This document shows positions 14,203 through 35,942 of a DNA stretch of 64,000 nucleotides, piece after piece. The translations under genes and the position numbers were made by a program. Origin of the DNA: Escherichia phage PBECO4; sequence record KC295538. One strand, 5' to 3'. The notes below the pieces were generated by a model. It saw only the letters and a program-made list of their open reading frames with translations, was not told the origin of the DNA and did not search any database. Every line of letters begins with the position of its first letter. Positions within the stretch are counted from its first letter, which is position 1.

Positions 14203-14207
14203 TTGTT

Positions 14208-14810
14208 TTATACCTCAGTATAAAGCTTACAATAGCTTTCATCAAAATCACAAACACTTCTCAAGTACTGACACAGGTCAGTAAAAATATTTACATTTGC
14301 TATATATACATTATCAAATTCTACTCGTTGAAAGAATGTATGCATAGAATTTGTAATATATCTCATTGCAGATTCACGTTCCATCGTTAAATCATTTGTG
14401 AACATTGCATCTTCATCAGTACTGACTAATTCAATATCAAATGATTGCATATATGGAATACTCTTTCCTAGGGCATAACTATCACCATATGATGCTTCTA
14501 CTGCACCGTTAGAATACACCAATTGATATAAGTCCGAAATAGGGTTATAAAAAGTGCGGCAAATTGAGGAACATAATTTATTATTCATCCAATAGAAAAC
14601 CCTATTTGAATTACCGTCAAATGCTATACGCAATCCATCACCATCTAGAGTAATAATCCCATCCAGAATAAAAGAGAACTGAACTAATGCTTTTTCTAAG
14701 TCCATTCTTTTGTGATAAATGATTTCTTGCATATAGATAATATCATTTACTAATTTCTTAAAAAACAAATGCACATCTGCACTACAACATTTATTTGCAT
14801 TTATTGGCAT
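14208..14810 (-). CDS. FamA-like paralog (divergent)
   Basis: 200 aa; EKALVQFSFILD. Confidence 0.55.
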   Translation of the reverse strand: MPINANKCCSADVHLFFKKLVNDIIYMQEIIYHKRMDLEKALVQFSFILDGIITLDGDGLRIAFDGNSNRVFYWMNNKLCSSICRTFYNPISDLYQLVYSNGAVEASYGDSYALGKSIPYMQSFDIELVSTDEDAMFTNDLTMERESAMRYITNSMHTFFQRVEFDNVYIANVNIFTDLCQYLRSVCDFDESYCKLYTEV

Positions 14811-15361
14811 AATAGTTCCTTATACATATTATGTACTTTACAAATCTCATTATAGTATTTCATATCAATATCATTTGTATTAAAAACGGAAACAGACAAT
14901 ACCGCTAAATCATCAATGAAGTAATTATTATCGGCGTACTCTTTTAACTTATTGAACATATAGATGCATTTTATACTTAATTCATCATGCAACACACTGT
15001 TCTGAAAAATATTCTCTTCAGTATTAGGAGATAAGTAATCTTCAATTATATACGATAAACTACTATCGCAATCTTTATAGATTGAAATTGATGGATGTAA
15101 TGTGTCATACATTACACAAAACAGATCACCGTCATATGTGGATATTAAACTATTATTGGAAACAGTAGGATGATAATATTTCAGTACTGAAAACTTTGAA
15201 CAATCAGTGCAGTAAAAATGATCCATCCCTCGACGACTTTCGTATGAGAATAGTTTACTTGTATATTCAATCCCTTTGGTGCGACGGATTGTTTCATGCA
15301 TTTCATTGCATTGCATTAAAATTACCATACGTTCAAACGCAAGATCTAAATCATCGTACAT
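14801..15361 (-). CDS. FamA paralog
   Basis: 186 aa; EENIFQNSVLHD. Confidence 0.7.
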   Translation of the reverse strand: MYDDLDLAFERMVILMQCNEMHETIRRTKGIEYTSKLFSYESRRGMDHFYCTDCSKFSVLKYYHPTVSNNSLISTYDGDLFCVMYDTLHPSISIYKDCDSSLSYIIEDYLSPNTEENIFQNSVLHDELSIKCIYMFNKLKEYADNNYFIDDLAVLSVSVFNTNDIDMKYYNEICKVHNMYKELLCQ

Positions 15362-15542
15362 AACGGATATCCTTCTTCAACGAATTAATATATTCTAAAA
15401 TAACTTGTTCTTGGTATTGGGTTCCTAAGTACATCAGTACTTTCAACTCTTTGAATTCAGTACTATATGAGTCTGTTTGCATCATTCTAGTAGAATATAT
15501 ATTGAATAGTTTAGCAATGTCATTTTGGTCTATTATTATCAT
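15351..15542 (-). CDS. FamB paralog (LGTxxQE motif) embedded in FamA array
   Basis: 63 aa; MYLGTQYQEQVI. Confidence 0.6.
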   Translation of the reverse strand: MIIIDQNDIAKLFNIYSTRMMQTDSYSTEFKELKVLMYLGTQYQEQVILEYINSLKKDIRYVR

Positions 15543-15738
15543 ATATTCTCTTCTGGATTAGTTCCTGTAAGTGCTGAATATAACCCTTCATTGCAACATC
15601 CTGTTTGTTAGAGCCAACGAAGAACAAGAGCTTAAAGTCATGGTAATCCATTTTTGGTTTAGTAGTGAACCATATGTCCCACACTGCACTCACAGTTCTC
15701 ATGTATTCAATTCGATTAAATGTTTTTGAATACTTCAT
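15520..15738 (-). CDS. FamB-like paralog embedded in FamA array
   Basis: 72 aa; FFVGSNKQDVAM. Confidence 0.55.
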   Translation of the reverse strand: MKYSKTFNRIEYMRTVSAVWDIWFTTKPKMDYHDFKLLFFVGSNKQDVAMKGYIQHLQELIQKRIYDNNRPK

Positions 15739-16252
15739 CGATGTTCATCGCCAATAAGTTAATATACAAATTACTGTTAAATGCAATCTGCAATTCCATA
15801 TAGAACTGAATGATAGCATAGTCAGGGTCAGTACACGATAGTTGAAAACACTGTTCGTCAAATGCATTGTAATTGTACTTAGGGATGTGAATTTCACGCT
15901 TCAAATCAGGTTGACCCCACTTCATCGCATACACACCAATGTTATTGTTCTTTTTCCTTTTCTTAAATGTTAATTGTTGAATATTTCCAGCGTTGTCTAG
16001 GAAAATAGTATTATTCGACACAGGTGCACCAATAGAAAACAATGATGTATCAATTACGTGTGTCTCACGCACCTCACACTTCTGGAATGCCCCAGTACCC
16101 TGTAATACATAATGAAAATTGTACTTCTCATTAACAACAGTACTAGGATCGATTAAACCAGTACTGCATTTTTTGAGTACTGGTACAATGGTGCGAATCT
16201 TTTTTGATAAATCTTGTAATGCATCAAAGTCATTGATGTTAACTTTCATCAC
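15716..16252 (-). CDS. FamA-like paralog (divergent)
   Basis: 178 aa; DEQCFQLSCTD. Confidence 0.55.
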   Translation of the reverse strand: MMKVNINDFDALQDLSKKIRTIVPVLKKCSTGLIDPSTVVNEKYNFHYVLQGTGAFQKCEVRETHVIDTSLFSIGAPVSNNTIFLDNAGNIQQLTFKKRKKNNNIGVYAMKWGQPDLKREIHIPKYNYNAFDEQCFQLSCTDPDYAIIQFYMELQIAFNSNLYINLLAMNIDEVFKNI

Positions 16253-16698
16253 TCGAATGTAGCCTCTTCAGTAGTAACAAAATTGGTTAGTGTATCCAGT
16301 TCAGCAGTGTCAAGATAAAATACATCTAGTACAGATTTCTGATATATTACACTGAATGTGCATAGATTGTCAAGTGTTCCTTGTTCATAAACAGTACTAC
16401 CCTGGAAGTACCCTTCTTCAGTACTCAGGGATAAAATATCTGAAATTTTAAAAGATTCTTCAGTTGTATGTCTTTCTATATTAACTATATTGCCGTTTCG
16501 GTTCAATGAAATATAATCGTATGCTAACTCAATTAGACTATAATTATCCGCATTAGTGTCAAATAAAGCGACAATTTTTCGTCTCAATCTCTCATCGTGA
16601 TCATGGTTTTCATCAGCTAAGTATTCAGGATTTTCTTTGAAGAACTTAACAACTTTTAGAATATCATTTGCTTTCTTGATTGCACTTTCGTAACTCAT
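16249..16698 (-). CDS. FamA paralog
   Basis: 149 aa; EEGYFQGSTVY ... FYLDT. Confidence 0.7.
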   Translation of the reverse strand: MSYESAIKKANDILKVVKFFKENPEYLADENHDHDERLRRKIVALFDTNADNYSLIELAYDYISLNRNGNIVNIERHTTEESFKISDILSLSTEEGYFQGSTVYEQGTLDNLCTFSVIYQKSVLDVFYLDTAELDTLTNFVTTEEATFE

Positions 16699-17003
16699 AA
16701 TAATTCAACCACTCCATCTCTAAAGTACATATAACTACCACCATTGGATACTGTGAATTCTATTGTCCCCAATAATATATTATATTTTTTTATTTCACAT
16801 GTAGTACTTGTAGTGTAAGGCTCACCATCTCCTAAGTACATTGACATATGACATAGAACTTTTCTACCAGCATATTTCTCTTCAAACGATTGTTCAAAAC
16901 TATGCATAATTTGATTTAAAGCTGAAATGTAATTAATAAAGTCAGGTATTTCTGTCAATGAATTATAAACCGTACAAAGTGAATCAAATTCATTTTTAGT
17001 CAT
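16695..17003 (-). CDS. hypothetical protein
   Basis: 102 aa ORF; no family motif. Confidence 0.55.
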   Translation of the reverse strand: MTKNEFDSLCTVYNSLTEIPDFINYISALNQIMHSFEQSFEEKYAGRKVLCHMSMYLGDGEPYTTSTTCEIKKYNILLGTIEFTVSNGGSYMYFRDGVVELL

Positions 17004-17317
17004 TATATTTCTATCTCAATGTAATCCTGTGTGATTAAGTAATCCCAATGATACTTCACCTGCTTTTGTAATTCAATTAACGTAAAGAAGTTGATCGATT
17101 TATCCCACACGAGCGATTCCTGGAAAATAAATGATTCATGTTCATCGTAATAATCACACTCTAAAAAATCAGGTATATATTCACTATCGTGAATGTATTC
17201 AACAAACGAACTAGCTTGGCATTTCTTTACTACTAGTAATAATGAATTATCATGATCAAACAGATACAATAAACTAATTTCACCAGGGACGTACTGAACA
17301 CTGAATAAGTTTTTCAT
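17003..17317 (-). CDS. FamA paralog
   Basis: 104 aa; ESFIFQESLVWD. Confidence 0.7.
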   Translation of the reverse strand: MKNLFSVQYVPGEISLLYLFDHDNSLLLVVKKCQASSFVEYIHDSEYIPDFLECDYYDEHESFIFQESLVWDKSINFFTLIELQKQVKYHWDYLITQDYIEIEI

Positions 17318-17766
17318 TCTATACCTTCTGGATCTTTACGAAGTTCTTCGAAATCCAAATAAAATCGAGGACAGTTAACACTCTTTAAGTACCACATAAT
17401 AACTAATGCTTCAAGTACTTCATCATCGTAAACAGTACTGTTTTGGAAGTAATATTCTTCACTATCCCACGGACCATCCAGTACTTCATAATTCAAAATT
17501 AATGGTTTTTTGCGATTAATAAAACGAATGCTACCATTTTCAACATAACTAATAAATTCTGCATCTCTATTGTATTCAGAAAACGATATAGGACTATTGG
17601 AATTCAACCCAAGAATAACCCTTACACCAACGGAGTTATTATACATTTCATCTTTGTAGTAGTTGCCGTTCTCGGCTTTGTACACTTCTTTGAACTTTCC
17701 TGCCTTTATATCGTCAAAGTATCCATGTAGTTCTTTTGCTTTTTCAAGAGCACTTTGTAATGACAT
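17314..17766 (-). CDS. FamA paralog, MSLQSALEKAK subfamily copy 1
   Basis: 150 aa; WDSEEYYFQNSTVYD; FYLDFEEL. Confidence 0.75.
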   Translation of the reverse strand: MSLQSALEKAKELHGYFDDIKAGKFKEVYKAENGNYYKDEMYNNSVGVRVILGLNSNSPISFSEYNRDAEFISYVENGSIRFINRKKPLILNYEVLDGPWDSEEYYFQNSTVYDDEVLEALVIMWYLKSVNCPRFYLDFEELRKDPEGIE

Positions 17767-18232
17767 TACCTTCTCCTACAGTATTCTCTACATATTCATA
17801 ATCAAAATAGAAACTACTGGAGTCAATACTTTTGAAATACCACATAATCACAATAACATCCAGTTCTTCTTCATTGTACAACGTACTATTCTGGAAGTAA
17901 TACTCTTCACTATCCCACGGACCTTCTAGTACTGAATAAGGAATGATAGTGTCATCAGCATCACTATCTGTGTTGTAGATGGTAATATCTTCATTACGGC
18001 AATAACTAATGTACTGATTGTACATATGATATTCACAGTTATCACTGTCACCAGTATCAGTGTGCAGTACTAATGTTTCTGCACATATCTCGGACTCGTC
18101 ATAATCGTCACGGTCTTTTACAAAAAATTCAGTATCAGATGTTTTATATACACCTGGAACTGAACCTTCTTGTACCATAATCATATACTCATGAATCTTC
18201 TTTGCTTCTTTCAATGCACTTTGTAACGACAT
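17744..18232 (-). CDS. FamA paralog, MSLQSALEKAK subfamily copy 2
   Basis: 162 aa; WDSEEYYFQNSTLYN. Confidence 0.75.
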   Translation of the reverse strand: MSLQSALKEAKKIHEYMIMVQEGSVPGVYKTSDTEFFVKDRDDYDESEICAETLVLHTDTGDSDNCEYHMYNQYISYCRNEDITIYNTDSDADDTIIPYSVLEGPWDSEEYYFQNSTLYNEEELDVIVIMWYFKSIDSSSFYFDYEYVENTVGEGNVITKCS

Positions 18233-18675
18233 TACAAATCCCCTGAACTTAAATATTCACATGCTCCCCAGTCAAGAAAGAATGGTTCAAAATTCAATTC
18301 CTTAAAGTACCACAACACAACCAAGGAATCAAGCATTTCTTGGTTAAAAATGAAACTCTGTTGGAAGTAATACTCTTCAGTACCCCACGGGCCATCAAGT
18401 ACCCCGAAGTCAACAGGTGCATTTGATGTGTCAAACGTAATCTTAGTACCTGGAATATATACAAAAAAACTAGTATATTGACTACATGAAGAGTACTGTA
18501 TAGTATTGTCTTTATCCTGTCCCATAAGTAAAATATCATCAGAATATGTCTTTATACCTGATAGATAATACTCATCACCAAATGCACTTACTTTATCACC
18601 ATAGAACCCACTTTTTATGTTATCGTGGAAGTGATGTATTCTGTGTGCTAGTTCAAGTGCACTTGCTAAACTCAT
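18232..18675 (-). CDS. FamA paralog, MSLQSALEKAK subfamily copy 3
   Basis: 147 aa; WGTEEYYFQQSFIFN. Confidence 0.75.
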   Translation of the reverse strand: MSLASALELAHRIHHFHDNIKSGFYGDKVSAFGDEYYLSGIKTYSDDILLMGQDKDNTIQYSSCSQYTSFFVYIPGTKITFDTSNAPVDFGVLDGPWGTEEYYFQQSFIFNQEMLDSLVVLWYFKELNFEPFFLDWGACEYLSSGDL

Positions 18676-19142
18676 ATATCCTCTTTAATAACTCGTAGTA
18701 GATCCAAGTCCAAATAGAAGCTAGGACAATCTGTATTATTAAAGTACCACAGAATGACAAGCTTGTCAAGTACATCTTCTGCGTAGATCGTATTCTGCTG
18801 GAAGTAGTACTCTTCACTTCCCCAGTCATTATCCAGTACTGAATACGGAAGATGTTTCTCTGCTGCACCAGATATAATGTCAGAATCTTGTATTAAAATA
18901 TCAGCATCACGACAGAAGTACATGTAATTATCTTCCAAATTAACATCACACCCATTGAGTGTTGTTTCAGAAGAATCTAAGTTTTCTTCATACATGTGAA
19001 TGTACTCACTACTGTCATCGTATCTCATTCGACAATAAGATTTACCTTCCTTGAATAGATATCCATTGAGACAATTTGCTACAATTTCTTTGCTGCATAA
19101 ATCAATTAACTTCGCAATCTCTAATGCTCTTTCTAAACTCAT
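18672..19142 (-). CDS. FamA paralog, MSLQSALEKAK subfamily copy 4
   Basis: 156 aa; WGSEEYYFQQNTIYA. Confidence 0.75.
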   Translation of the reverse strand: MSLERALEIAKLIDLCSKEIVANCLNGYLFKEGKSYCRMRYDDSSEYIHMYEENLDSSETTLNGCDVNLEDNYMYFCRDADILIQDSDIISGAAEKHLPYSVLDNDWGSEEYYFQQNTIYAEDVLDKLVILWYFNNTDCPSFYLDLDLLRVIKEDI

Positions 19143-19143
19143 T

Positions 19144-19635
19144 TTAACCCCTGTTAATACCGTTATCTACAGTTTTCTTTACGTATTTGTAATCGAAATA
19201 GAAGTTCCCAGAACCAATACTTTTAAAGTACCACATAATTATAATAACATCAAGCACTTCATTATCGTATACAGTACTTTGTTGGAAGTAATACTCTTCA
19301 CTATCCCACGGACCTTCCAGTACTTCACTCGGAATTATAATGTCATCGGAATCGCTATCAGTACTGTAGATGGTATCTGTATCATTAATATAGACCATGT
19401 ACTCATTATGCATATTAATGAAGCATTCATAATCATTAGGGTCGGTATCCAGTACACACGTTTCTGTATCCAGTACGCACGTTTCTGTATCTGAGTCGTC
19501 ATTATTAAGGAGGTTATCCGGTACATAATATTGAGTACTTGTGTCTTTGAAAACACCGTAAACTGAACCTTCTTTTGCCATATTCATGTACTCATGAATC
19601 TTCTTTGCTTTTTCCAATGAACTCTGTAATGTCAT
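19144..19635 (-). CDS. FamA paralog, MSLQSALEKAK subfamily copy 5
   Basis: 163 aa; WDSEEYYFQQSTVYD. Confidence 0.75.
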   Translation of the reverse strand: MTLQSSLEKAKKIHEYMNMAKEGSVYGVFKDTSTQYYVPDNLLNNDDSDTETCVLDTETCVLDTDPNDYECFINMHNEYMVYINDTDTIYSTDSDSDDIIIPSEVLEGPWDSEEYYFQQSTVYDNEVLDVIIIMWYFKSIGSGNFYFDYKYVKKTVDNGINRG

Positions 19636-19644
19636 TTTATAATC

Positions 19645-19998
19645 TCATATATTGAAATAATAATTATTCGTTCTTGATGGGGATGGATTAAATACGTTTT
19701 CTTTTTCAAATCTCTTCATTTCATTTTGCAAAGAAACCATTTCTTCAAATGTACAGGAGTACTTATTCTTATCAAACACTAATGCAGCCTGAAATAGTTC
19801 ACCATCGTCCAGTACTGTATAATCTATAAGACTCTCAGATTCATAGTCATCATGTGATACATGAATAAATTTAAAACAAGAATCTTTGTAATGCATATAT
19901 AAACTCAACTCATGTTCCGAGTCTCCCTTAATAAGATTACAGCACAAGTCCCATCCTTTAGGTAACTTATAATAGTACATAGAATAATCATATGTCAT
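19645..19998 (-). CDS. FamA paralog, LFQxALVFDKKY subfamily
   Basis: 117 aa; DGELFQAALVFDKNKYSCTFEEM. Confidence 0.7.
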   Translation of the reverse strand: MTYDYSMYYYKLPKGWDLCCNLIKGDSEHELSLYMHYKDSCFKFIHVSHDDYESESLIDYTVLDDGELFQAALVFDKNKYSCTFEEMVSLQNEMKRFEKENVFNPSPSRTNNYYFNI

Positions 19999-20354
19999 TC
20001 TTGAATTCCTAAATTGAATTTGTATTCTTGATTAATACTTGCATTGGGTTTATTCAAAGCAGCATACTCTTTCATTTCATTTTGTATTGCAATAACTTCT
20101 TCAAATGTACACAAGTACTTCTTATCAAATACTAATGATTCTTGGAATAGTTCTGCGGTATCCATTAATGTATAGTCAGGCATATCTTGGTGTGGATACT
20201 GTAATGAACTGTAATCAATGAATGTAAATTTACCCTGAGTGTAATGAATATACTCATTTGCACTGTGCATTAAATCACCTTTGTTTAAATTACAAAAGTA
20301 CTGATAACTGTGCTTAAAAGAATGTACTGATATTAAAAAATCAAATTCCATCAC
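19995..20354 (-). CDS. FamA paralog, LFQxALVFDKKY subfamily
   Basis: 119 aa; TAELFQESLVFDKKYLCTFEEV. Confidence 0.7.
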   Translation of the reverse strand: MMEFDFLISVHSFKHSYQYFCNLNKGDLMHSANEYIHYTQGKFTFIDYSSLQYPHQDMPDYTLMDTAELFQESLVFDKKYLCTFEEVIAIQNEMKEYAALNKPNASINQEYKFNLGIQE

Positions 20355-20728
20355 TCTTCCCCTAGATTGAAATGATTACAAAAATTATCTTCACCAGTAC
20401 TGCACCAGATATCTATACATTCCCTGTGAATACATTTAATTCTACGCTGTAATTCAATCATCTCTTCTAATGTACAGATGTACTTCTTATCAAATACTAA
20501 TGCCTCCTGAAACAGTGCAGCATCATCAAGTACTGTATAGTCCAACATCTCGGTTGCTTTACCCCTAAACCCAGTACTAAAATCCATCAAATAAAAGTCA
20601 GCATTCCAGTACTTTAAAATCTTGTCCCTAGCGTAGTTTAAATCACCCTTGTATAAGTTAGAGTGCGTAACTAACTCACCAGTGTACATCCATGTCCTTG
20701 CACAAAATTCATTATATTTTATTTCCAT
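20351..20728 (-). CDS. FamA paralog, LFQxALVFDKKY subfamily
   Basis: Start moved to ATG at 20728 (MEIKYNEF...); DAALFQEALVFDKKYICTLEEM. Confidence 0.7.
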   Translation of the reverse strand: MEIKYNEFCARTWMYTGELVTHSNLYKGDLNYARDKILKYWNADFYLMDFSTGFRGKATEMLDYTVLDDAALFQEALVFDKKYICTLEEMIELQRRIKCIHRECIDIWCSTGEDNFCNHFNLGEE

Positions 20729-20778
20729 CTTAATCTCTACTATAATTAATAAGGTAAACTCCAATATAAGGAGCACGT

Positions 20779-20909
20779 TGCGGGGCGGGGTATTTTTTTG
20801 TTTCAGGAAACATGCCCTGTACTCTGAAAAACACAATATAAAACTTTATATTAAACATATACCTTAACATGTTTTTCAGCGGAAATTTTTTTGACCCCCC
20901 CCTGCGGCC
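20779..20909. other. GC-rich structured intergenic element (G-tract ... C-tract)
   Basis: gcggggcgggg + T-run at 20780-20800 and gacccccccctgcggcc at 20893-20909 can pair across ~100 nt; unusual in AT-rich context. Confidence 0.4.
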
Positions 20910-20927
20910 TGTCAAAATGAAACGTCT

Positions 20928-21137
20928 CTATTTATTCAGCCTAGAAAGCTTGATTTCTTCAATCCTTTTCATTGCACAAAGCCTTCGACTCGTCATCTCG
21001 TATAAATTCAATACTCGGTTTACCGTATTATCTACACTCTGAACCAAATATGTATCCTTCAAAATCAAATCCATCATGTATTCAAAACCCTTAATACTAT
21101 GCGAACTTATCACTTCCGGCTCTTCAAACGTAATCAT
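20928..21137 (-). CDS. hypothetical protein
   Basis: 69 aa ORF. Confidence 0.5.
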   Translation of the reverse strand: MITFEEPEVISSHSIKGFEYMMDLILKDTYLVQSVDNTVNRVLNLYEMTSRRLCAMKRIEEIKLSRLNK

Positions 21138-21327
21138 AATTCCAATCCCCTATTCCCTCTAACCTTCTAAGATATCTTGCGTAAATTATTTCGAAATATC
21201 TGTGCAACGAAATTACGGATTGCTCATAATCATCATTCCTGTACATTGTGCATGTAAGAAAATCATTTAAACCGTAATCTAAACTGCACTTGAACTTCTC
21301 CTTTGCAACATCTCTAAAATTATTCAT
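21124..21327 (-). CDS. hypothetical protein
   Basis: 67 aa ORF. Confidence 0.5.
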   Translation of the reverse strand: MNNFRDVAKEKFKCSLDYGLNDFLTCTMYRNDDYEQSVISLHRYFEIIYARYLRRLEGIGDWNYDYV

Positions 21328-21487
21328 AATATGTCCTCTGTACAGCGTAGGTGTACTGTGAACTCAGCACCACTAATAGGTAATCTATATTGTAAGCACG
21401 ATTTCCTCGTTGACTAGCACGACTGGAATAAAGAATATTATCCACATATGCATTGAACTGATCTTCAAATAACTCTTTCATCAGCAT
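21324..21487 (-). CDS. small hypothetical protein (54 aa)
   Basis: ATG ORF MLMKELFEDQFNAY...; ATGA stop/start overlap with downstream gene. Confidence 0.35.
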
Positions 21488-21509
21488 TATACCATCACAT
21501 AATCATACA

Positions 21510-22061
21510 TCATACATTAACAACTTTATCGATGTAATCTTCTAACATATCAATATATCTGGTATTGGTTCTAACTAAAAGGTATGCAAATCCAGAAAAC
21601 TCCTGTGTATAATGCTTTACAGCGTACATACAACGAAGCTTATCATTGTCATACATTGTACTGTACTGAAACAAACTCTCGTCTGATAGCTCTAATAACG
21701 CTTGGGCTTCACTTCTCGTGAACTTCATAGGGTCATGTACTGCATCACAAAAACAAACCTGTGTCTCGCTATTGAAACCCTGTGATAGATATATACCTTC
21801 ACACTCTGAACGCACCGATACTGCATTATAACTATGTGTTGCCCCCATCATATCTGAACTCAAAACTAAAATCAACCCATTTTTATTTTTAATCAACAAA
21901 TCTGACTTAAGGGATTTGATCTCCGTATGGGAAATATCACCAAATCTTCCTGGGACTTCAAACTTATCAACGTTGTATACAATCTTTTGTACTTGCTCTT
22001 TTAAACGCTTAATTGCACTTCTGTCTTTTTCTAATGTATCTAATAAACTCATTGAACTCAT
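21510..22061 (-). CDS. FamA paralog
   Basis: Start moved to ATG at 22061 (MSSMSLL...); DESLFQYSTMYD. Confidence 0.65.
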   Translation of the reverse strand: MSSMSLLDTLEKDRSAIKRLKEQVQKIVYNVDKFEVPGRFGDISHTEIKSLKSDLLIKNKNGLILVLSSDMMGATHSYNAVSVRSECEGIYLSQGFNSETQVCFCDAVHDPMKFTRSEAQALLELSDESLFQYSTMYDNDKLRCMYAVKHYTQEFSGFAYLLVRTNTRYIDMLEDYIDKVVNV

Positions 22062-22071
22062 TGTACTTTCC

Positions 22072-22416
22072 TTACATATTTGTACCGAACAAAACGGAAC
22101 TTTGAATGCCATTAATCGACACTTCATGTACATATATATTTTGTCTGAACAAAGGAACTAATTGAACTAAACTCGTTTGCATAATAATATGCATATGTAC
22201 ATTGTCATATGCCGTTTCGTATTGGAATCGTGCAGCTTCATCTTCTATGAAATTCGGAACTTGGACTGGATTCTCAAAATTTGTCCTTGTACTGAACTGT
22301 ACATCATTGTCCTGTACCTTAATACCATATGAATTATCATTGTTATCAACTACATCAAATTCAATTAAACTACCATCTTTACTGACGTTTACTATATAAA
22401 CCGAAAATCGACTCAT
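22072..22416 (-). CDS. FamA-like paralog (divergent)
   Basis: 114 aa; EAARFQYETAYD. Confidence 0.5.
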   Translation of the reverse strand: MSRFSVYIVNVSKDGSLIEFDVVDNNDNSYGIKVQDNDVQFSTRTNFENPVQVPNFIEDEAARFQYETAYDNVHMHIIMQTSLVQLVPLFRQNIYVHEVSINGIQSSVLFGTNM

Positions 22417-22928
22417 AAACCTATTTCCTCTAAATCTTTGACAAATGTATCATAATCCGATAATGACAAAAATATGTCTGTACTGATGTTCTGACGTAAT
22501 GTATTAAACAAATTATGTACCTGTAATAAATCAGGTGAATAAATCAGGGATTGCTGGAAATACGATTCTTCTGTATCTAATATATCCCTGCACTCAATTT
22601 CACGAACTCGTTGGTATATTGAATTTAATAATACATTTTCATCTTTGAGCATTGGAAGGTATCGGATGTACATGTTCTCCATCAACTCATCTTGGATTGA
22701 ACCCCTGAACTGCAACACGTATTCAAAACACATCACTACATCTTGTAGGTAATTGGCACTGTACTGATTACTATACACGATTTTATGACAACTGAACTCG
22801 GAATCATTTCTGAACCAATTGTTACCCTCTTTCCTGTACTTATGACTAAGCTTCCCATCCTCCAACGCTCGAATGAACTTCATAATGTTAATTGCAAAAT
22901 CATATGAATGATGCTTGTGTTGATGCAT
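22413..22928 (-). CDS. FamA paralog
   Basis: 171 aa; EESYFQQSLIY. Confidence 0.7.
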   Translation of the reverse strand: MHQHKHHSYDFAINIMKFIRALEDGKLSHKYRKEGNNWFRNDSEFSCHKIVYSNQYSANYLQDVVMCFEYVLQFRGSIQDELMENMYIRYLPMLKDENVLLNSIYQRVREIECRDILDTEESYFQQSLIYSPDLLQVHNLFNTLRQNISTDIFLSLSDYDTFVKDLEEIGL

Positions 22929-22936
22929 TTTTTACC

Positions 22937-23131
22937 TCAATTCTGTCCGAAAAAATAACCAAAATGTTTAAAGCAAGAAAGCATTACTATGTTCATCACT
23001 CTATCATCAAATTCATCTTGTGTTTCTGCACATAATGTTTCACTGATATTCATATGTAATAATTCAAGCTGGAAACTATCGGTGAACCAATCAAACTTAC
23101 GGTATTTTTGTTTAACATCAACTGTAAGCAT
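22937..23131 (-). CDS. hypothetical protein
   Basis: 64 aa ORF. Confidence 0.45.
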   Translation of the reverse strand: MLTVDVKQKYRKFDWFTDSFQLELLHMNISETLCAETQDEFDDRVMNIVMLSCFKHFGYFFGQN

Positions 23132-23132
23132 A

Positions 23133-23756
23133 CTATATATCCAACCCTTTTACAACATCTACGAAATGTTCAAACACTTCTTTTGAAAAATAACCACCTT
23201 CACAAAAAAGCATACTAAACGGTGGCAGCATGTCCGATAACTCTTTAGCTAAATTGATTTCTGCTCTTAACTCTTGAACATCAATGATATCATGTACTAA
23301 AGATAATTGAAACATGAATGCATCTACATCTTCATTCATTTCTGAATTGTAATATAACTCTTCAGGGAATTTGTCGGTTTCGTAATAATAAAAAACTTTA
23401 TTGTTGAACACACCACTAATAGGAACATCATTTTCATCTTTCTTTGAAATGTTTGTTTCCCATGACTCTATATTATTAGGAACAAAAAAATCATAGGCTG
23501 ATTTTGAACCCTGTACTGAATCCAACTTTATTCCATAATATTCCGTATCCATGTATTTCTGCTGTAATGTAATACCACGTGTACTGACATTCACTTGGAA
23601 TATATCATCTTTATCTGGAACGCTAAATGGAATACATAACACTGAATTCTCAGGGTATTTGGCAATGAATGCATCCAGCACTTTATTAAGCACTGGAATG
23701 GCAATTTTACTGTACTGCATCAAATCATACATTTTAATTCTGGTCATATCATTCAC
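23133..23756 (-). CDS. FamA paralog
   Basis: 207 aa; DAFMFQLSLVHD. Confidence 0.7.
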   Translation of the reverse strand: MNDMTRIKMYDLMQYSKIAIPVLNKVLDAFIAKYPENSVLCIPFSVPDKDDIFQVNVSTRGITLQQKYMDTEYYGIKLDSVQGSKSAYDFFVPNNIESWETNISKKDENDVPISGVFNNKVFYYYETDKFPEELYYNSEMNEDVDAFMFQLSLVHDIIDVQELRAEINLAKELSDMLPPFSMLFCEGGYFSKEVFEHFVDVVKGLDI

Positions 23757-24279
23757 CTGTGTATGTTTTCACCCTTAGCGATTCAAAATCCCATACATCA
23801 CTGATTGTACCATTGTGCCTGTAATCATAATATTCTACTAATACATTATACAATAACTTCAACGATACAAATTCATGATTCCACGGAGCTTTATTCTCAT
23901 GAACACATTTGGTGATATAAGGTATAATATATAAACTAAACAACACTAATGGTGAATGTATACATTGCATTTGAAAATATTCTTCTTCTTGCATACAATG
24001 TTCAGGAATAATTAGATCATAATGTGTCTCAAATAAATGTAAACCTATTGTGGTTTTTTTCGTATCACATGCGTACCATATTGTACTATCCGAAATAAAT
24101 GGAATGATACCATTATTGTTTGCAATGTACATCATATGGTAAGAGCGATTTGTCTTGTTAAATATCTCGATACTTTCGATATTACTACAAATCATGTATT
24201 CAAGGCAATCAATGATCTTATCTTTAAATGTACCAATTTCATTGAATGACATTGCTTTCTGTACTGTTGTACTGCTCAT
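23749..24279 (-). CDS. FamA paralog
   Basis: 176 aa; EEEYFQMQCIH. Confidence 0.65.
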   Translation of the reverse strand: MSSTTVQKAMSFNEIGTFKDKIIDCLEYMICSNIESIEIFNKTNRSYHMMYIANNNGIIPFISDSTIWYACDTKKTTIGLHLFETHYDLIIPEHCMQEEEYFQMQCIHSPLVLFSLYIIPYITKCVHENKAPWNHEFVSLKLLYNVLVEYYDYRHNGTISDVWDFESLRVKTYTGE

Positions 24280-24818
24280 ATGTTCTCCTTAAAAAAATCC
24301 AAATACTCTTCATTGAAAGCATATGTATCATCTTTTATGTTATGCACCACATAATCATAAAGAGCTATGAATGCAGGGATTATGATCTTACATGATGTAT
24401 TATTATATTTGTGCTGCTCCAAATCAACGGTATTCAATTTAGCAATAAGCATAGCAACAAAGATATCTTCATGGCGGTGTACTGTACTGTACTGAAAATA
24501 TTCATCCTCTCCAATATCAGGATGATATAACGGTATATCCAAATTATTACGAATTGACATTTTATATTTTTGTAATGCAGCTAAATGCATGAACCACAAT
24601 CTATCTTCATGGAAAGATGGAAAAATAATTTTGTCTGTGCTAATAAAAATTTCTTCATTTCGATTATTTGTCACAAGAGGTGCATACATTTTAATTTTTG
24701 CAGATCTAATAATTAAATTAAAAATATAATGAATCTTATGAACTGCACTTGATGCATCTTCGTATGTACTTGGGATTATGAAACTCACTATATGTTCTCC
24801 TTTAAAATGATTACACAT
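24276..24818 (-). CDS. FamA paralog
   Basis: 180 aa; EDEYFQYSTVH. Confidence 0.7.
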   Translation of the reverse strand: MCNHFKGEHIVSFIIPSTYEDASSAVHKIHYIFNLIIRSAKIKMYAPLVTNNRNEEIFISTDKIIFPSFHEDRLWFMHLAALQKYKMSIRNNLDIPLYHPDIGEDEYFQYSTVHRHEDIFVAMLIAKLNTVDLEQHKYNNTSCKIIIPAFIALYDYVVHNIKDDTYAFNEEYLDFFKENI

Positions 24819-24870
24819 GATAACAGCTTTGGTCTTCTATGTCAATACCAAAACGAAAAAAGCCCATATC

Positions 24871-25377
24871 TTACGATACAGGCGTTCTGGGCATGTTTAT
24901 TTGAATTTCATTGTACAAATCATCAATATATAGACATGAAAACGATACACTTTCTTTAACTATATTGTTGTGATAAAGCATTTTAAATGCAATATAGAAA
25001 AATAAATCAATATCATCATGTACTAAATTCTGCTGGAACCACCACTCTTCTGTTAAATCTTGTGCATTAAAATCATCAGGAACTACAATTGACGACATAT
25101 CAGAATCTTCTTTGTACTCAAACCACATGTCGTCATTCGGATAACGTTCATGCTTCTCTGGGTAACAATTGGTGGGATTAAATGCTAAAATATAAAATGC
25201 CGTCGAAGAATGTTCTTTATTAAAAAATGAATTATTCCACACCTGATACCTTTCACCAACATCAAGCTCTTTTGATACTGATGTTATTGCACATAATGTA
25301 CTGTATATTGTTTCTATTTTGTGAACAAATTTAAATGCTGCATCTAAACTGAACTCTAAATCAGACATGCGGTGCAT
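24871..25377 (-). CDS. FamA paralog
   Basis: 168 aa; EEWWFQQNLVHD. Confidence 0.7.
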   Translation of the reverse strand: MHRMSDLEFSLDAAFKFVHKIETIYSTLCAITSVSKELDVGERYQVWNNSFFNKEHSSTAFYILAFNPTNCYPEKHERYPNDDMWFEYKEDSDMSSIVVPDDFNAQDLTEEWWFQQNLVHDDIDLFFYIAFKMLYHNNIVKESVSFSCLYIDDLYNEIQINMPRTPVS

Positions 25378-25697
25378 AAAATTACCTCAACTAAAACAAG
25401 AACGGTATTGAATTCGATGCAACCTTTGATTCCTTGATTGTACATGTACTTTGCTACTACATATTTCTGTACTAAATTATAATTTTTAAATTCCTCAAAA
25501 TTGTAATTTAGAACAAAATCTGTACTCAAAAATAACTTATGCATCTCTAATGCACTTTGATAATACGCGTACAACTCACGGATATCAATACTGGTTAAAT
25601 TATATTGTTCATATCTATGATACGGGATGGCTTCAATTTCAATACTATAAAACCATTCTCTTAACTTATTAATATCAAATGTATTATTCAGCTTCAT
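25356..25697 (-). CDS. hypothetical protein
   Basis: 113 aa ORF. Confidence 0.5.
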   Translation of the reverse strand: MKLNNTFDINKLREWFYSIEIEAIPYHRYEQYNLTSIDIRELYAYYQSALEMHKLFLSTDFVLNYNFEEFKNYNLVQKYVVAKYMYNQGIKGCIEFNTVLVLVEVILCTACLI

Positions 25698-26250
25698 AAC
25701 TCAATACCTCCATTAAACACTCATACACACCATCAATCGCATAAGCACAAAAATTGAAATTAATTTTGTGATTCTTGTGTAATGGACTATTGTGTACTGT
25801 ACTCATTATGACATTATAAAATAACAAACGCACTGGTACAAGCATTGAACCTTGGAAAAATTCTTCCTCTGATTTATATGTATTGTACTCTATTGCTTTG
25901 TTCGTTTCTGTATCATATTTTACCATTACTAACGGGGCATTTTTATTATACCATGCGTACTCTAAATCATTCTTTCCAATAACAGCACCAGGTGCAAAAT
26001 CCAAAAGACCAATAACACTACGGGCATTTGGTGTATCAGGTGTATTGAATCGTTTATCAAAATGACTCGTGCACGTAATATATGTATTGTACTTCGATGG
26101 AATAATACCAATACATTTGTGGAAATGACGCTTGTGATATTTCTGGGCATTATATAAGGCTGCAACAATACAAGCTAACTTTTGTCCCATAAGGATGGCA
26201 TTAGCGTAGGTGTACTGAATATCATTGCTGGTACGGTACTTCGAGGTCAT
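25684..26250 (-). CDS. FamA paralog
   Basis: 188 aa; EEEFFQGSMLV. Confidence 0.7.
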   Translation of the reverse strand: MTSKYRTSNDIQYTYANAILMGQKLACIVAALYNAQKYHKRHFHKCIGIIPSKYNTYITCTSHFDKRFNTPDTPNARSVIGLLDFAPGAVIGKNDLEYAWYNKNAPLVMVKYDTETNKAIEYNTYKSEEEFFQGSMLVPVRLLFYNVIMSTVHNSPLHKNHKINFNFCAYAIDGVYECLMEVLSYEAE

Positions 26251-26533
26251 AATATTTCCTTTGCCATATCATGGGCTTAAAATCAATAACAGCTTTCTGT
26301 ATCTTTTTTAATAATAAGACATCATAACCACCCGTGTCAATCACTAATTGCTGTTGGAACAATTCTTCATCGGATAATGTATTGAAATCTACAAAATAAT
26401 CTGTAACTATCGAATCATTTAAATGTGCCATGTACCAACCTGAACTTCTTGAATAAATCAAATTCCACCCATCGTCATCATCTTCTAATTCAACATAAAT
26501 CATATCTGGGGTATACATCATTTTATACTTCAT
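26222..26533 (-). CDS. FamA paralog
   Basis: 103 aa; DEELFQQQLVID. Confidence 0.65.
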   Translation of the reverse strand: MKYKMMYTPDMIYVELEDDDDGWNLIYSRSSGWYMAHLNDSIVTDYFVDFNTLSDEELFQQQLVIDTGGYDVLLLKKIQKAVIDFKPMIWQRKYYDLEVPYQQ

Positions 26534-27077
26534 AACTATATCCTTGCATTAATAAATCATAAACTACATGGACTAAATTTAATTGAATATAAAATTTTAA
26601 ACCTTTAATTAATGAATTCAAATGCATTGTACTGAATAACATTAGATACATCATCTCATGCGGTTTTGTGATTAATGATTTTTGAAATACTTCAGCTTCA
26701 TCATAAGGGTCTATGAACTGAAATTTGTCTTCATCATAATTTGTATTGGAATGCTGATATATAAAATAATCATCATTGGTATTGTACCACAAATATCCTT
26801 CGAATCCTGTACTAACATCTTTGGTCAATGGGGATGCTGATACTGGATTTGAACTGATTAATGCACCTACATCAACAATCCCCGTTGTATCATATTCGAT
26901 TTCAACATCAATGTCAATATCAATGTATTTCCTTGCGATATCTGCGTTTATGGACAAATATAAACTACCACCTGTCCTCTGACTCAGGATTCCATCTATC
27001 TGCGATATAGGATGGTTGTTATTGAGGATAAGCATTATTGTACTTATCTTGTGTGCTAATAACTCTATCTCATTCAT
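26523..27077 (-). CDS. FamA paralog
   Basis: 184 aa; EAEVFQKSLIT. Confidence 0.7.
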   Translation of the reverse strand: MNEIELLAHKISTIMLILNNNHPISQIDGILSQRTGGSLYLSINADIARKYIDIDIDVEIEYDTTGIVDVGALISSNPVSASPLTKDVSTGFEGYLWYNTNDDYFIYQHSNTNYDEDKFQFIDPYDEAEVFQKSLITKPHEMMYLMLFSTMHLNSLIKGLKFYIQLNLVHVVYDLLMQGYSYEV

Positions 27078-27277
27078 AATTTACCTATCGATGGATACCT
27101 AGGATTTGTAGGATGTAAAATCCTGTCCTGTACTGAAAGGTGCTCAAATGTAATTAAACTCAAATAATAATCGTAATTATCAATACCACCCTTCAAATGT
27201 ATATTGTAATACATCTTAATACTATCTAATAATGAATCCTGTAATGCATTTAATGTTATCGTATTAATCTTTTGCAT
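27074..27277 (-). CDS. hypothetical protein
   Basis: 67 aa ORF. Confidence 0.45.
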   Translation of the reverse strand: MQKINTITLNALQDSLLDSIKMYYNIHLKGGIDNYDYYLSLITFEHLSVQDRILHPTNPRYPSIGKL

Positions 27278-27425
27278 TAATGTTCTTCTCTTAAAAATCG
27301 TTTGATAGCATAATCTAAATAAAATTCATAACACATGCTATCTCTGTTCTTTATCCATATTTTGTAATCGGATTTTATATTACGCAACAAATAATTTGTA
27401 TTAATTGTGTAATAATCTAATCGCC

Positions 27426-27812
27426 CTAATCTTTCCATTTAATAGGATACTCCTTTCCTTGTACTATATATGACAAAATCCATCCGTAATGAATAGGATG
27501 ATTTTTATCTGAATCAGGAATAAAATATAAAGCTGTACTTGGATTATGACTGAATAAATCTTTATTGTCAAATGTAAAATGTGATAATATAATTTTCCTT
27601 GTACTTGGACGAATAACATTCTTAACACTGAACTCTGTTCCTTTGTATTTCTCCGAGAATTCAAATAATGCATCTGTAATTAAATCACTGAACTCTTGGA
27701 TTACAAAATTCTGATAAAATGCATTAATCTCTTTTAACTCTGTATACAATTCACTTCTGGTATTCAAAAGGAATATTACTTGTTTAAGATCCTGTACTAT
27801 TGTTGGGTTCAT
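27426..27812 (-). CDS. hypothetical protein
   Basis: 128 aa ORF. Confidence 0.55.
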   Translation of the reverse strand: MNPTIVQDLKQVIFLLNTRSELYTELKEINAFYQNFVIQEFSDLITDALFEFSEKYKGTEFSVKNVIRPSTRKIILSHFTFDNKDLFSHNPSTALYFIPDSDKNHPIHYGWILSYIVQGKEYPIKWKD

Positions 27813-28071
27813 ATTTGTTTATCTCATTATGTACCTTAAGCATAAAAATTTGCATATGAATTTTTTGTTCAAGGTGCTTGATAAATTTCTGTACTGTATC
27901 TTCTTGATCTTTTGTACCAAGATAAAATAACATATTAAATTCAGATAATCTCAGAGAGAAATCTTCCTCTCCCCCTCGTAAACAAAAATCCCTGTACTTT
28001 GAAGCGTACAATAAAGAATCTACCTTTTTATATATTTGGGTCTGCATTGTATCTCCATTTTCAAGGACCAT
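27784..28071 (-). CDS. FamB paralog
   Basis: 95 aa; LFYLGTKDQEDTV. Confidence 0.6.
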   Translation of the reverse strand: MVLENGDTMQTQIYKKVDSLLYASKYRDFCLRGGEEDFSLRLSEFNMLFYLGTKDQEDTVQKFIKHLEQKIHMQIFMLKVHNEINKYEPNNSTGS

Positions 28072-28232
28072 ATGAGCTTATCAACGCATTGATCCTGTGC
28101 TATTGTCCCTAGATAAAATAATACATCAAAATCTGATATTTTGATATTAAAAGGATCGGTGTGTACATTTTTAATAAACTCCCTGTACTTCATTTCATAT
28201 GCATTAGGTATATTCTTATATGTCAATTTCAA
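28020..28232 (-). CDS. FamB paralog
   Basis: 70 aa; LFYLGTIAQDQCV. Confidence 0.6.
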   Translation of the reverse strand: MKLTYKNIPNAYEMKYREFIKNVHTDPFNIKISDFDVLFYLGTIAQDQCVDKLIWSLKMEIQCRPKYIKR

Positions 28233-28533
28233 TGATCCTCCCTGACATACCTTGTATTAGCTTATCATACATATCGAGCATCACTTTTTGAATACTAATT
28301 AGTACTGGCATCGTGCAAATATCAATGTCGTATACTAAGCTGTACTGGAATAATTCATCTTCCTGCATTTGTACTAAATTAGGTAAAAGATAATTGTCTG
28401 CCTCTTCATCCTGGTACTTGAAATGCATAACACCATCCTTTTTGTACAAAAGAATGTCAATATCACCCAACTCTTCGGCATAACCAAATATACATATATT
28501 AGATGTTTTTGCTATATTAAATTTCATCTCCAC
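28216..28533 (-). CDS. FamA paralog (short)
   Basis: 105 aa; EDELFQYSLVYD. Confidence 0.7.
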   Translation of the reverse strand: MEMKFNIAKTSNICIFGYAEELGDIDILLYKKDGVMHFKYQDEEADNYLLPNLVQMQEDELFQYSLVYDIDICTMPVLISIQKVMLDMYDKLIQGMSGRIIEIDI

Positions 28534-28769
28534 CTCTCTCCGTCAGCACAAGAGTACTGGTACGTTGTCGTTAGGGTAGGGACCATGTTCGTAATGGGCA
28601 TGTTGTTAACAATAACCGTAACAGGCATAAGAATCGTCTCTACTCTACTCTGTCCTGTCCTTGTGCAATTCATCTTCTGCATTTCATCTGAATCCATGAA
28701 ATACAATACAAATGGTGCAATCCCAAGAACAATACACAAGACGATAAGGAAATTTAAAAAATTTAACAT
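28524..28769 (-). CDS. small membrane protein (single N-terminal TM helix)
   Basis: 81 aa; hydrophobic FLNFLIVLCIVLGIAPFVLYF. Confidence 0.5.
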   Translation of the reverse strand: MLNFLNFLIVLCIVLGIAPFVLYFMDSDEMQKMNCTRTGQSRVETILMPVTVIVNNMPITNMVPTLTTTYQYSCADGERWR

Positions 28770-28830
28770 AATTTTCTACCCTAATGATTAACGTACAGGT
28801 ACTATATCAGTAATGAAAAGTACTGTCAAG

Positions 28831-29226
28831 CTAGTATTGCACTGTTCTAATGAAAGTACCTTTACTCATGGATTTAAGCTTATGAACCTCTTCCTGTATA
28901 CCCTTGATTAACCCTAAAGGTATAGGTACATCATGTACTAAGCTGTACTGAAAGTATTCTTCTTCAGATAAAGTACTAACATCTGGAACGCCAATTTTAG
29001 TTAGATAATCTTGATGTGTTGACCAATAAATTATATCTTCAGTACTATTGTACTCCCCATATACTGAACAATATTGATGAATATCTTTCCTGTACCCTTG
29101 AGCAATAAAGAACTTATCTACTGCATTACCAGCATTAATAGAATTCACTTCGATTGTCACAGTACTTGAGCTTGTATAACTCTTAATATTATCAGTACTC
29201 AACTGTGTGTTCTTCATAATCACCAT
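28831..29226 (-). CDS. FamA paralog
   Basis: 131 aa; EEEYFQYSLVHD. Confidence 0.7.
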   Translation of the reverse strand: MVIMKNTQLSTDNIKSYTSSSTVTIEVNSINAGNAVDKFFIAQGYRKDIHQYCSVYGEYNSTEDIIYWSTHQDYLTKIGVPDVSTLSEEEYFQYSLVHDVPIPLGLIKGIQEEVHKLKSMSKGTFIRTVQY

Positions 29227-29536
29227 TAGGCTCCTGTTTAGATTCTTTCATTAGTACTATCATCTTATGTACTAATGGCATAGGAAACTCTAAATCCCAT
29301 ACTAATGATTCCTGAAAGTATTCCTCTGGTGATAAAGTACTTAAATCTTTAATATCAACGTGCTTGTATATTTTATTTTCGTAATTAACAAATGATATAT
29401 ATAAATCACTAACATAAGAATCATAGGTAATTGTGAATGGCTTACCCTTGTAATCCATTACATCTCTACATAGACTACTTTTGATATATGTATGTTCAAA
29501 TGATTTATATACCTTGAGTTGTATATTAGTTTTCAT
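29192..29536 (-). CDS. FamA paralog
   Basis: 114 aa; PEEYFQESLVWD. Confidence 0.7.
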   Translation of the reverse strand: MKTNIQLKVYKSFEHTYIKSSLCRDVMDYKGKPFTITYDSYVSDLYISFVNYENKIYKHVDIKDLSTLSPEEYFQESLVWDLEFPMPLVHKMIVLMKESKQEPNGDYEEHTVEY

Positions 29537-29801
29537 ATTTCTCTTTATTAGCTTGTTTGGTTTTATAGTGAATTAAATCTATTAATGTAATCAAGTACAA
29601 CGTCAAATAGTACTCTTGTTGATCTGTACCTAATGATACAAAGAACTTGTGCTCATAGATTAAAACCTGTTTCTCTTCAAATGGACATTTAATCCTCTGT
29701 ATAGGCTTAAGTAAATGATAGTACTTATTAAATCTATGATACATTTCTAGTTCTGTCAGTACTTTCATATTAAACATGTACTCCATTAGCAGTAGCATCA
29801 C
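29526..29801 (-). CDS. FamB paralog
   Basis: 91 aa; FFVSLGTDQQEYY. Confidence 0.6.
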   Translation of the reverse strand: MMLLLMEYMFNMKVLTELEMYHRFNKYYHLLKPIQRIKCPFEEKQVLIYEHKFFVSLGTDQQEYYLTLYLITLIDLIHYKTKQANKEKYEN

Positions 29802-29991
29802 GTAAAGCTGTCAAATACTTCTGTACGGCTTGCTCTTGCTTATTTGTACCTAAAAGTATATACATCCATAATTCACTGTAATGTACATCTTGTGTATAAG
29901 GGTTGTTGTAACTTTTTGATAATATAGCATCAAATTCAGATGCATGAACCCTTGTGAACTTAAGAATATCTTGTTGTGTTATGATTCTCAT
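29770..29991 (-). CDS. FamB paralog
   Basis: 73 aa; YILLGTNKQEQAV. Confidence 0.65.
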   Translation of the reverse strand: MRIITQQDILKFTRVHASEFDAILSKSYNNPYTQDVHYSELWMYILLGTNKQEQAVQKYLTALRDATANGVHV

Positions 29992-32429: not shown

Positions 32430-32458
32430 GTTAATTACCCTTACATTTATTTTCAATA

Positions 32459-32698: not shown

Positions 32699-32699
32699 G

Positions 32700-34272: not shown

Positions 34273-34273
34273 T

Positions 34274-35883: not shown

Positions 35884-35916
35884 AGGATAAAATCCATAGG
35901 TTCATATGTGAAAAAA

Positions 35917-35942
35917 CATCATACCCCATGTGAGGCATGATG
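35917..35942 (-). terminator. intrinsic terminator
   Basis: catcataccccatgtgaggcatgatg hairpin followed on minus strand by T6. Confidence 0.5.

Follow-up and report, generated by a model that had tools for sequence, protein, structure and literature searches.

In African swine fever virus, genes of the MGF360 and MGF505 families are interleaved in the variable genome ends, and poxviruses are known for "genomic accordions". Among bacteriophages, the hyperplastic regions of T4-type phages undergo PeSL-mediated modular shuffling (Arbiol et al. 2010, PMC2839356; Comeau et al. 2014, PMC4122927), and Bacillus phage G carries a zinc-ribbon family of about 35 copies (Iyer et al. 2021, PMC7824862), while 22 paralogous open reading frames (ORFs) have been described for phage CBB (PMC5259590). 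Here we analyzed 64,000 nucleotides of Escherichia phage PBECO4 (sequence record KC295538; "the window" denotes this whole stretch), which carry three arrays of small genes of the families FamA, FamB and FamC, with members of one family sitting within the array of another. A first-pass annotation, made from the sequence, had taken this intermixing as a sign that gene-sized units are shuffled between the arrays by recombination. The comparisons reported here show a layout that probably reflects ancient interleaving, local duplication and single-gene turnover in three unrelated families of small proteins that have undergone lineage-specific expansion.

The window corresponds to the early-gene arm of an Asteriusvirus, a jumbo coliphage of the 121Q type. 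Its positions 14000-30000 match 34 phage records, all of them jumbo phages of Escherichia or Salmonella that belong to Asteriusvirus (121Q, PBECO4 group). The closest record for this segment is JP4 with 98.6% identity; BF17 is 100% identical to the window at 28600-29400, and the protein encoded at 59637-60308 is 100% identical in CRJP21 and only 77% identical in JP4. Since the closest strain changes along the window, the genome is a mosaic of circulating relatives. Compared to ph0011, nucleotide identity is 73-85% within the arrays and 95% just outside. Compared to Turkey5, orthologues of array genes share about 28-57% identity and the genes 36619-36828 and 36897-37331 just outside 94-95%. By these identities the arrays (1-36335) are a hyper-variable block beside a conserved block (36400-46600).

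Families were defined by all-against-all BLASTP of 173 non-nested minus-strand ORFs, followed by iterated hidden Markov model (HMM) searches. FamB formed a single BLASTP cluster of 32 genes, several linked clusters were merged by the iterated HMM into the 35 genes of FamA (1783-36335), and the FamC clusters merge to 17 genes. The arrays are as follows.

1783-27077, minus strand: main FamA array, about 31 HMM-positive genes, 100-207 amino acids (aa) (iterated HMM, alignment)
29526-35883, minus strand: main FamB array, 28 HMM-positive genes, 52-96 aa, plus the marginal ORF 33553-33801
57706-61756, minus strand: FamC array, 17 genes, 59-87 aa, phrog_11711

Array ORFs lie almost all on the minus strand, as do all genes concerned here, and their overlaps are mostly a few bases. 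Long and short subtypes are interspersed in the FamA array, which also contains some weaker or unrelated ORFs. The FamA hallmark is (S/T)-E-E-x-(L/Y/F)-F-Q-x-S-(T/L)-(V/I), located about 45-55 residues from the C-terminus. FamB proteins (52-96 aa) are recognized by L/V-G-T/S-x-x-Q-E/D followed by a C-terminal helix Y-I-x-x-L; in the alignment Q and L are invariant and G and T nearly so. The independent PHROG library recognizes all three families: FamB belongs to phrog_4148, FamA to phrog_9317, 12674, 13866, 15629 and 19795, and FamC to phrog_11711, all without an assigned function. A Pfam scan with ten representatives gave no match above threshold. Profile-profile comparison of the three families (hhalign) yielded probabilities of at most 2%, showing that they are unrelated and that FamB is no fragment of FamA. 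AlphaFold predicts four helices for FamB (predicted local distance difference test score, pLDDT, 96), and this model has no significant match in the PDB. The FamA model is likewise a confidently predicted fold (pLDDT 91), for which no solved-structure relative was found; FamA-like predicted folds also occur among further RaK2-like jumbo phages, namely RaK2, GAP32, Serratia phage BF and Yersinia phage fHe-Yen9-04. Among 1.84 billion proteins, the FamA profile retrieved only 135 cluster representatives. No description of these families, their arrays or their interleaving was found in the searchable literature. The order of A and B labels along the window comprises 7 runs compared to 34.5 ± 4.1 under random order. 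These are genuine arrays with a few genuine intrusions.

For the membership test, each family profile was rebuilt without the candidates and scored against the 173 ORFs. The candidate-free FamB HMM was made from the contiguous array 29526-35883 alone and the candidate-free FamA HMM from ORFs below 27100 only. The displaced genes and the elements among them are the following.

15351-15542, minus strand: FamB gene in the FamA array, 63 aa; candidate-free HMM E=9e-14, phrog_4148 E=2.5e-16
15520-15738, minus strand: second FamB gene in the FamA array, 72 aa; HMM E=4e-6, phrog_4148 E=8.9e-4
27784-28232, minus strand: FamB pair, genes 27784-28071 (HMM E=1e-7) and 28020-28232 (E=8e-7)
28216-28533, minus strand: short FamA gene; candidate-free HMM E=1e-8, leave-one-out 2e-7
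28524-28769, minus strand: unrelated gene X, 81 aa, hydrophobic N-terminus, phrog_8826; conserved anchor
28770-28830, minus strand: putative sigma-70-like promoter before X, TTGACA-17-TATAGT with TG
28831-29226, minus strand: short FamA gene, strain-variable; candidate-free HMM E=8e-12, leave-one-out 2e-13
29192-29536, minus strand: short FamA gene adjoining the first gene of the FamB array; HMM E=6e-11, leave-one-out 2e-10

The candidate-free profiles place the four FamB and the three FamA genes in their families. Both intrusions that the first-pass annotation had reported here, two FamB genes inside the FamA array (15351-15738) and three FamA genes where the FamB array begins (28216-29536), are confirmed, and its coordinates were correct throughout. 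Additions to its list are the FamB pair 27784-28232, the unrelated gene X among the three FamA genes and a borderline gene at 35970-36335. Both FamB genes at 15351-15738 bear the motif L/V-G-T/S-x-x-Q-E/D and are assigned to phrog_4148, the same group as the array member 29770-29991; 15520-15738 is divergent and has the motif variant G-S-N. The pair 27784-28071/28020-28232 lies just outside the main FamB array, separated from it by the FamA and X genes; its two genes are sisters (80% bootstrap) with orthologues in ph0011, BF17 and phage A4. The FamA hallmark is present in 28216-28533, 28831-29226 and 29192-29536 as QEDELFQYSLVYD, SEEEYFQYSLVHD and SPEEYFQESLVWD.

Family maps were compared for seven genomes, namely the window, BF17, 121Q, ph0011, A4, Turkey5 and JNE01. 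In all seven, FamB genes lie within the FamA array and the boundary is mixed, B-B-A-...-A-B(n), with 6-8 A/B runs, and they share an ...A-B-B-.-A... pattern; this includes two genomes with orthologues of no more than about 30-57% identity. The intrusions named by the first-pass annotation are found at the same or syntenic positions in BF17, 121Q, ph0011 and A4, and most of them also in Turkey5 and JNE01. According to reciprocal best hits, the genes starting at 15351, 27784, 28020 and 28216, X and 29192 have the same neighbours in ph0011, BF17 and A4, except that 15351 has a non-reciprocal best hit in A4. Neighbour retention by this measure holds even at 28-57% identity. In Turkey5, 15351, 28216 and X keep their neighbours at 49-59% identity, next to the 94-95% of the flanking non-array genes 36619 and 36897. 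Since the mixed layout is common to all relatives compared, the interleaving is old.

Divergence and selection were determined for the same genes. The displaced genes share at most about 40% identity with any array member, the nearest array member of the displaced FamB genes of the window is at a BLOSUM distance of about 0.72-0.8, and a FamB tree of three genomes contains cross-genome clades for the 15520-like (73% bootstrap) and 28020-like (100%) genes. The ratio of nonsynonymous to synonymous substitution rates (dN/dS) of the displaced genes is 0.10-0.52, which indicates purifying selection; the medians are 0.26-0.35 for the families compared to 0.13-0.15 for flanking genes. Gene 15351-15542 has syntenic orthologues in ph0011, BF17, 121Q and Turkey5 (dN/dS 0.16). 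Gene 28216-28533 has reciprocal best hits in ph0011 (95% identity), A4 (36%) and Turkey5 (49%) with a dN/dS of 0.10, and is, as judged from these comparisons, a conserved anchor of the mixed zone. Gene 29192-29536 is kept in the 121Q, ph0011, A4 and WPEC5 lineages (dN/dS 0.18-0.34). For the 15520 gene, the clade of orthologues consists of the window, A4 and Turkey5; the Turkey5 copy is located at a different site about 5 kb off, equivalent to window positions of about 20.9-21.5 kb, and in both Turkey5 and JNE01 the 15520-like gene lies within the small-gene cluster equivalent to that interval. Together, the mapped layouts and dN/dS values show that the displaced genes were interleaved as early as in the common ancestor of the sampled genus and have since been kept as functional genes.

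Trees of FamA and FamB indicate how the arrays have grown. Well-supported clades (bootstrap at least 60%) consist of adjacent genes or of one local cluster. They include the FamB pairs 30400/30615, 31476/31699, 34862/35071, 27784/28020 and others, and the FamA clusters 17314-19635 and 19645-20836; the sole non-local pairing, 29192 with 13840, reaches 53%. Because supported sisters are neighbours or belong to the same cluster, each array grows mainly in place. The highest paralogue DNA identity in the window is about 76-78%, seen only between neighbours. The FamA genes 17744-18232 and 19144-19635 are sisters with 100% bootstrap and about 78% DNA identity over 218 nt, and are separated by two other members of their five-gene cluster. 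This arrangement points to a non-adjacent or segmental duplication within the cluster, or possibly to gene conversion.

Strains also differ in copy number. In BF17 and 121Q, the orthologue of 19995 is followed by an extra FamA gene, flanked by an 85-nt direct repeat (96% identity) that derives from the 5' end of this orthologue; in the window the repeat occurs once and the extra gene is absent. In BF17, another extra FamA gene has ends of about 90-220 nt that are near-identical to those of its neighbour 26523-27077. The closest paralogues adjoin and the copy-number breakpoints lie inside paralogous repeats, a pattern by which neighbouring paralogues appear to undergo unequal crossovers. Near-identical recent tandem copies, as expected for an active "genomic accordion", were not found, the best paralogue DNA identity being about 76-78%.

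Single FamA and FamB genes in the mixed zone at 28.2-29.6 kb are present or absent depending on the strain, with breakpoints on stop and start codons. In WPEC5 the order is A (28216)-A2-X-A3 (28831)-B-A4 (29192). In comparison, the window and BF17 are without A2 and B, the phages ph0011, A4 and vB_Ec-M-J without A3, and 121Q without A2, A3 and B. A replacement of B by A between X and 29192, as the comparison of the window to ph0011 seemed to show, was dropped as an interpretation: WPEC5 carries A3 and B side by side, so that the contrast consists of two independent presence/absence differences. The A2 junction reads GGAGATAATG...GAGAATAATATG, with both edges being GAGA(T)AAT(A)ATG, that is, ribosome-binding site (RBS) plus start codon; the edges of the A2 and B indels contain no promoter. 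The A3 gene, 28831-29226, is present in 25 of the 34 records and absent from 121Q, ph0011, A4, vB_Ec-M-J, Turkey3, UE-S1, Turkey5 and JNE01. In relatives without this upstream cassette, homology restarts at the -35 box of the promoter 28770-28830. The sole start codons of 28831-29226 (29226, 29217) fall within the conserved 3' end of 29192-29536, the gene upstream of it, and in ph0011 the shared ATG opens a frame that ends after 12 codons. In vB_Ec-M-J, the 29192 gene has a tandem copy with 70% identity.

A further strain-specific gene is located past the far end of the FamB array.

35884-36618, minus strand: rare cassette, gene 35970-36335 between promoter-like sites 36336-36618 and 35884-35969

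This cassette was found in the window and BF17 only, among 33 records; 121Q has a single promoter at the site. The two promoters around the gene have little in common beyond the -35 box. Leave-one-out scoring of 35970-36335 gives E=0.11 with the profile of all FamA and 0.0012 with that of the short subfamily, BLASTP against 29192-type genes gives 6e-5 to 3e-4, and the hallmark motif is degenerate (SEKAFAKEAKKWD). The gene is probably a divergent FamA-like gene, with borderline membership. A search of 5.8e9 sequences with its protein returned one near-identical cluster only and no distant homologue. An array member as source of the cassette was rejected.

The last of the intrusions named by the first-pass annotation concerns the FamC array.

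59637-60308, minus strand: gene for a protein with the FamA motif inside the FamC array, 223 aa; motif LSEEELFMYSTVID at residues 174-187

Here the claim of a FamA-like protein is upheld for the hallmark motif and fails for a full-length FamA match (E=0.24, not significant). In a motif-centred FamA HMM, the protein is the best non-family match (E=1.4e-4), with the hallmark at the expected distance from the C-terminus. The canonical F-Q is present in divergent orthologues of Turkey5 (SEDEMFQWSTII) and EJP2 (TDEKMFQYSTMI), and with these two added, hhalign gave a probability of 89% (P=2e-6) in place of 42-51%, over 24 columns only. Of the 135 hits that the FamA profile gave among 1.84e9 proteins, none has the size of this type (218-225 aa). 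As the motif is shared and the full-length match absent, "FamA-like" is a fair description and membership is unproven. The protein has a single match in each of 35 records, and in Turkey5 the gene likewise lies inside the FamC array. EJP2 has three tandem paralogues (206-225 aa), two of them with the F-Q motif, and its fetched 8.6-kb locus gave no FamC match. On the simplest reading, 59637-60308 would be an older resident that the FamC array has come to surround, not a FamA gene that recently moved in. In the EJP2 locus (L006), five tandem predicted multi-pass membrane proteins of about 115 aa (431-2163) precede the 59637 paralogues (2710-4675), and these genes converge on RCC1-like genes; the FamC array in the window and in Turkey5 diverges from such genes.

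Taken together, these results are best explained by ancient interleaving with local duplication and single-gene turnover, which we consider probable; such behaviour is known from the hyperplastic regions of T4-type phages (PMC2839356, PMC4122927) and from viral multigene families at large. The arrays would have grown mainly as neighbouring genes duplicated and then diverged strongly. Deletions and insertions of unit size may arise from recombination between the similar ends of adjacent paralogues, while gene-precise indels may use the short RBS/start-codon sequences present on every tightly packed gene. Occasionally, promoter-plus-gene cassettes would insert at promoter-bearing intergenic gaps, and homologous recombination among co-infecting relatives could spread the variants, giving the mosaic identity pattern. 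Several points weigh against this explanation. The direction of change, loss or gain, rests on parsimony with a handful of genomes and no rooted phylogeny. The family trees are star-like and poorly supported, which leaves room for old transfers between arrays, and such transfers are needed to explain how the interleaving first originated. The microhomology at RBS and start codons could be a side effect of selection that keeps genes intact, instead of a recombination substrate. The 15520-like gene at another site in Turkey5 and JNE01 suggests some relocation or the differential loss of old duplicates. For 59637-60308, the EJP2 comparison covers one locus, and the resident status of this gene depends on that one outgroup locus.

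Exchange of gene-sized units among the FamA, FamB and FamC arrays at short repeated junction sequences might still be going on, in line with the first-pass annotation. Parts of its shuffling claim did stand: gene-sized units come and go, the 35970 cassette has been inserted in the window and BF17, and one FamB lineage, the 15520-like gene, occupies another site in Turkey5. The gene-precise presence and absence of A and B genes within one 1.3-kb zone, the rare FamA-like cassette where the FamB array ends, the one junction with microhomology and the different positions of the 15520-like gene in two lineages would all be expected from such exchange. However, the intrusions on which the claim was built are fixed and syntenic genus-wide and form deep branches, and hence the synteny comparison that the annotation had proposed as a check speaks against current or recent exchange. 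Its second check, repeats at the borders of the displaced genes, was negative as well, since no direct repeats of at least 10 nt flank 15351-15738 and all repeats at 14.5-36.5 kb lie inside genes, where they represent the conserved coding motifs LGTNYQE and EEYYFQ. Recent copies are lacking (maximum of about 78% DNA identity, neighbours only), WPEC5 resolves the apparent A/B swap into two differences, and no array member is the source of the 35970 cassette. Nor did the view hold that the arrays do not grow in isolation, given the local position of supported sisters. We therefore regard ongoing exchange as rather improbable, and because the interleaving is old and the arrays resemble other viral multigene families, the layout alone is no evidence for active shuffling.

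PeSL-like promoter-cassette shuffling, that is, recombination at promoters and terminators, possibly via mini-circles, could instead have made the mixed zone. The arm at 36-57 kb is full of a repeated early promoter motif TTGACA...AGTACTGTATAAT, two promoters enclose the 35970 cassette at a place with one in 121Q, and the 28831 cassette abuts the promoter 28770-28830, with homology restarting at the -35 box. Array genes overlap, however, and leave almost no intergenic DNA (about 6 promoter-like gaps in 36 kb). Terminator-like stem-loops are not enriched (7 found compared to 5.7 expected), and the promoters flanking 35970 share little past the -35 box. The model seems to fit only part of the data, because promoters flank or abut two cassettes and the A2 and B indels have none at their edges; as an explanation for the whole zone we judge it unlikely. 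Duplication of an ancestral A-B-B (or B-B-A) block would account for the FamB pairs at 15351-15738 and 27784-28232. Both intrusions are indeed FamB pairs beside a FamA gene, and 15351, 27784 and 28020 group weakly in the tree of the window only. This clade receives 12% bootstrap, though, and a clade of all four displaced genes 3% in the three-genome tree; 15520 groups elsewhere, and the adjacent FamA genes are not closely related to each other (14801 is of the long type, 28216 of the short type). Such co-amplification is thus very improbable, and the segmental duplication of an A-B-B block was rejected for want of support in the trees.

No hexamer is more frequent in the window than the palindrome AGTACT, with 258 sites compared to 18.1 ± 3.7 expected (14-fold). 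Often the site extends to CAGTACTG, and it is found in each of the three reading frames as well as between genes. AGT-ACT encodes 64 of 103 Ser-Thr dipeptides (62%) in the rich regions and none of 22 in two AGTACT-free islands, from which it follows that the hexamer is made by synonymous codon choice.

20609-28301, no strand: AGTACT-free island 1, distal FamA genes and the FamB pair 27784-28232
30955-36598, no strand: AGTACT-free island 2, most of the FamB array and the 35970 cassette

The islands recur in BF17, 121Q, A4, Turkey5 and JNE01, are the segments most diverged from ph0011 and bracket the AGTACT-rich mixed zone. No description of the AGTACT excess was found in the searchable literature. 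A more speculative and rather doubtful idea is that the mixed zone (28.2-31.0 kb) serves as a dedicated exchange point for single-gene cassettes from diversifying early-gene families, using RBS/start microhomology and promoter cassettes and marked in the DNA as an AGTACT-rich islet flanked by the two conserved islands, with AGTACT as binding or target site of a phage-encoded factor. The factor recognizing AGTACT (CAGTACTG) would then be kept out of the array blocks, or its site never selected there. If true, jumbo phages would have their own equivalent of T4 PeSL shuffling, tied to a sequence signal that runs through the genome. This as yet unexplained signal, with conserved gaps where parts of the arrays lie, may be a more interesting lead than the interleaving.

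Outside the FamA and FamB arrays, the intergenic gaps of window 36336-57705 contain an early-promoter-like motif, TTGACAAAGTATnTTAGTACTGTATAAT, that precedes many small genes; examples are 39693-39776, 42263-42352, 42536-42620, 44077-44159, 45817-45915 and 46392-46485. A second repeated type of motif, TTGACTCCGGTCAGTCCCTTTGCTATTAT, is found at 37721-37964, 40074-40218, 43259-43437 and 46828-47273.

In a phage of 350 kb, FamA, FamB and FamC together comprise roughly 85 genes, all uncharacterised, and the gene-by-gene map of fixed anchors and strain-variable members is a starting point for studying the function of the three families. Compared to the known systems, the region resembles the hyperplastic regions of T4-type phages in its small early genes of mostly unassigned function between conserved regions, in close relatives that differ by insertion, deletion or replacement of single genes, and in strong sigma-70-like promoters repeated through the region, with one cassette bounded by promoters here. 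It differs in that the variable genes are three large paralogous families in overlapping, promoter-poor arrays, that most indel edges lie at start and stop codons or in paralogous repeats and not at promoter/stem-loop cassettes, and that stem-loops are not enriched. As in the expansions of phages G and CBB, a single jumbo-phage genome encodes a small protein in tens of copies; unlike those, the families here have no Pfam match or solved-structure relative. The likeness to African swine fever virus and poxviruses lies in tandem paralogue arrays of a large DNA virus with members of different families interspersed, in copy-number differences between strains by unequal recombination and in a presumed role in host interaction, whereas the virus realm and the proteins are different. 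Since no recent high-identity amplification is seen (maximum of about 78% DNA identity), turnover appears slow, in contrast to an active accordion. In their local growth, fast divergence under purifying selection and loss and gain of single genes, the arrays behave like other viral multigene families.

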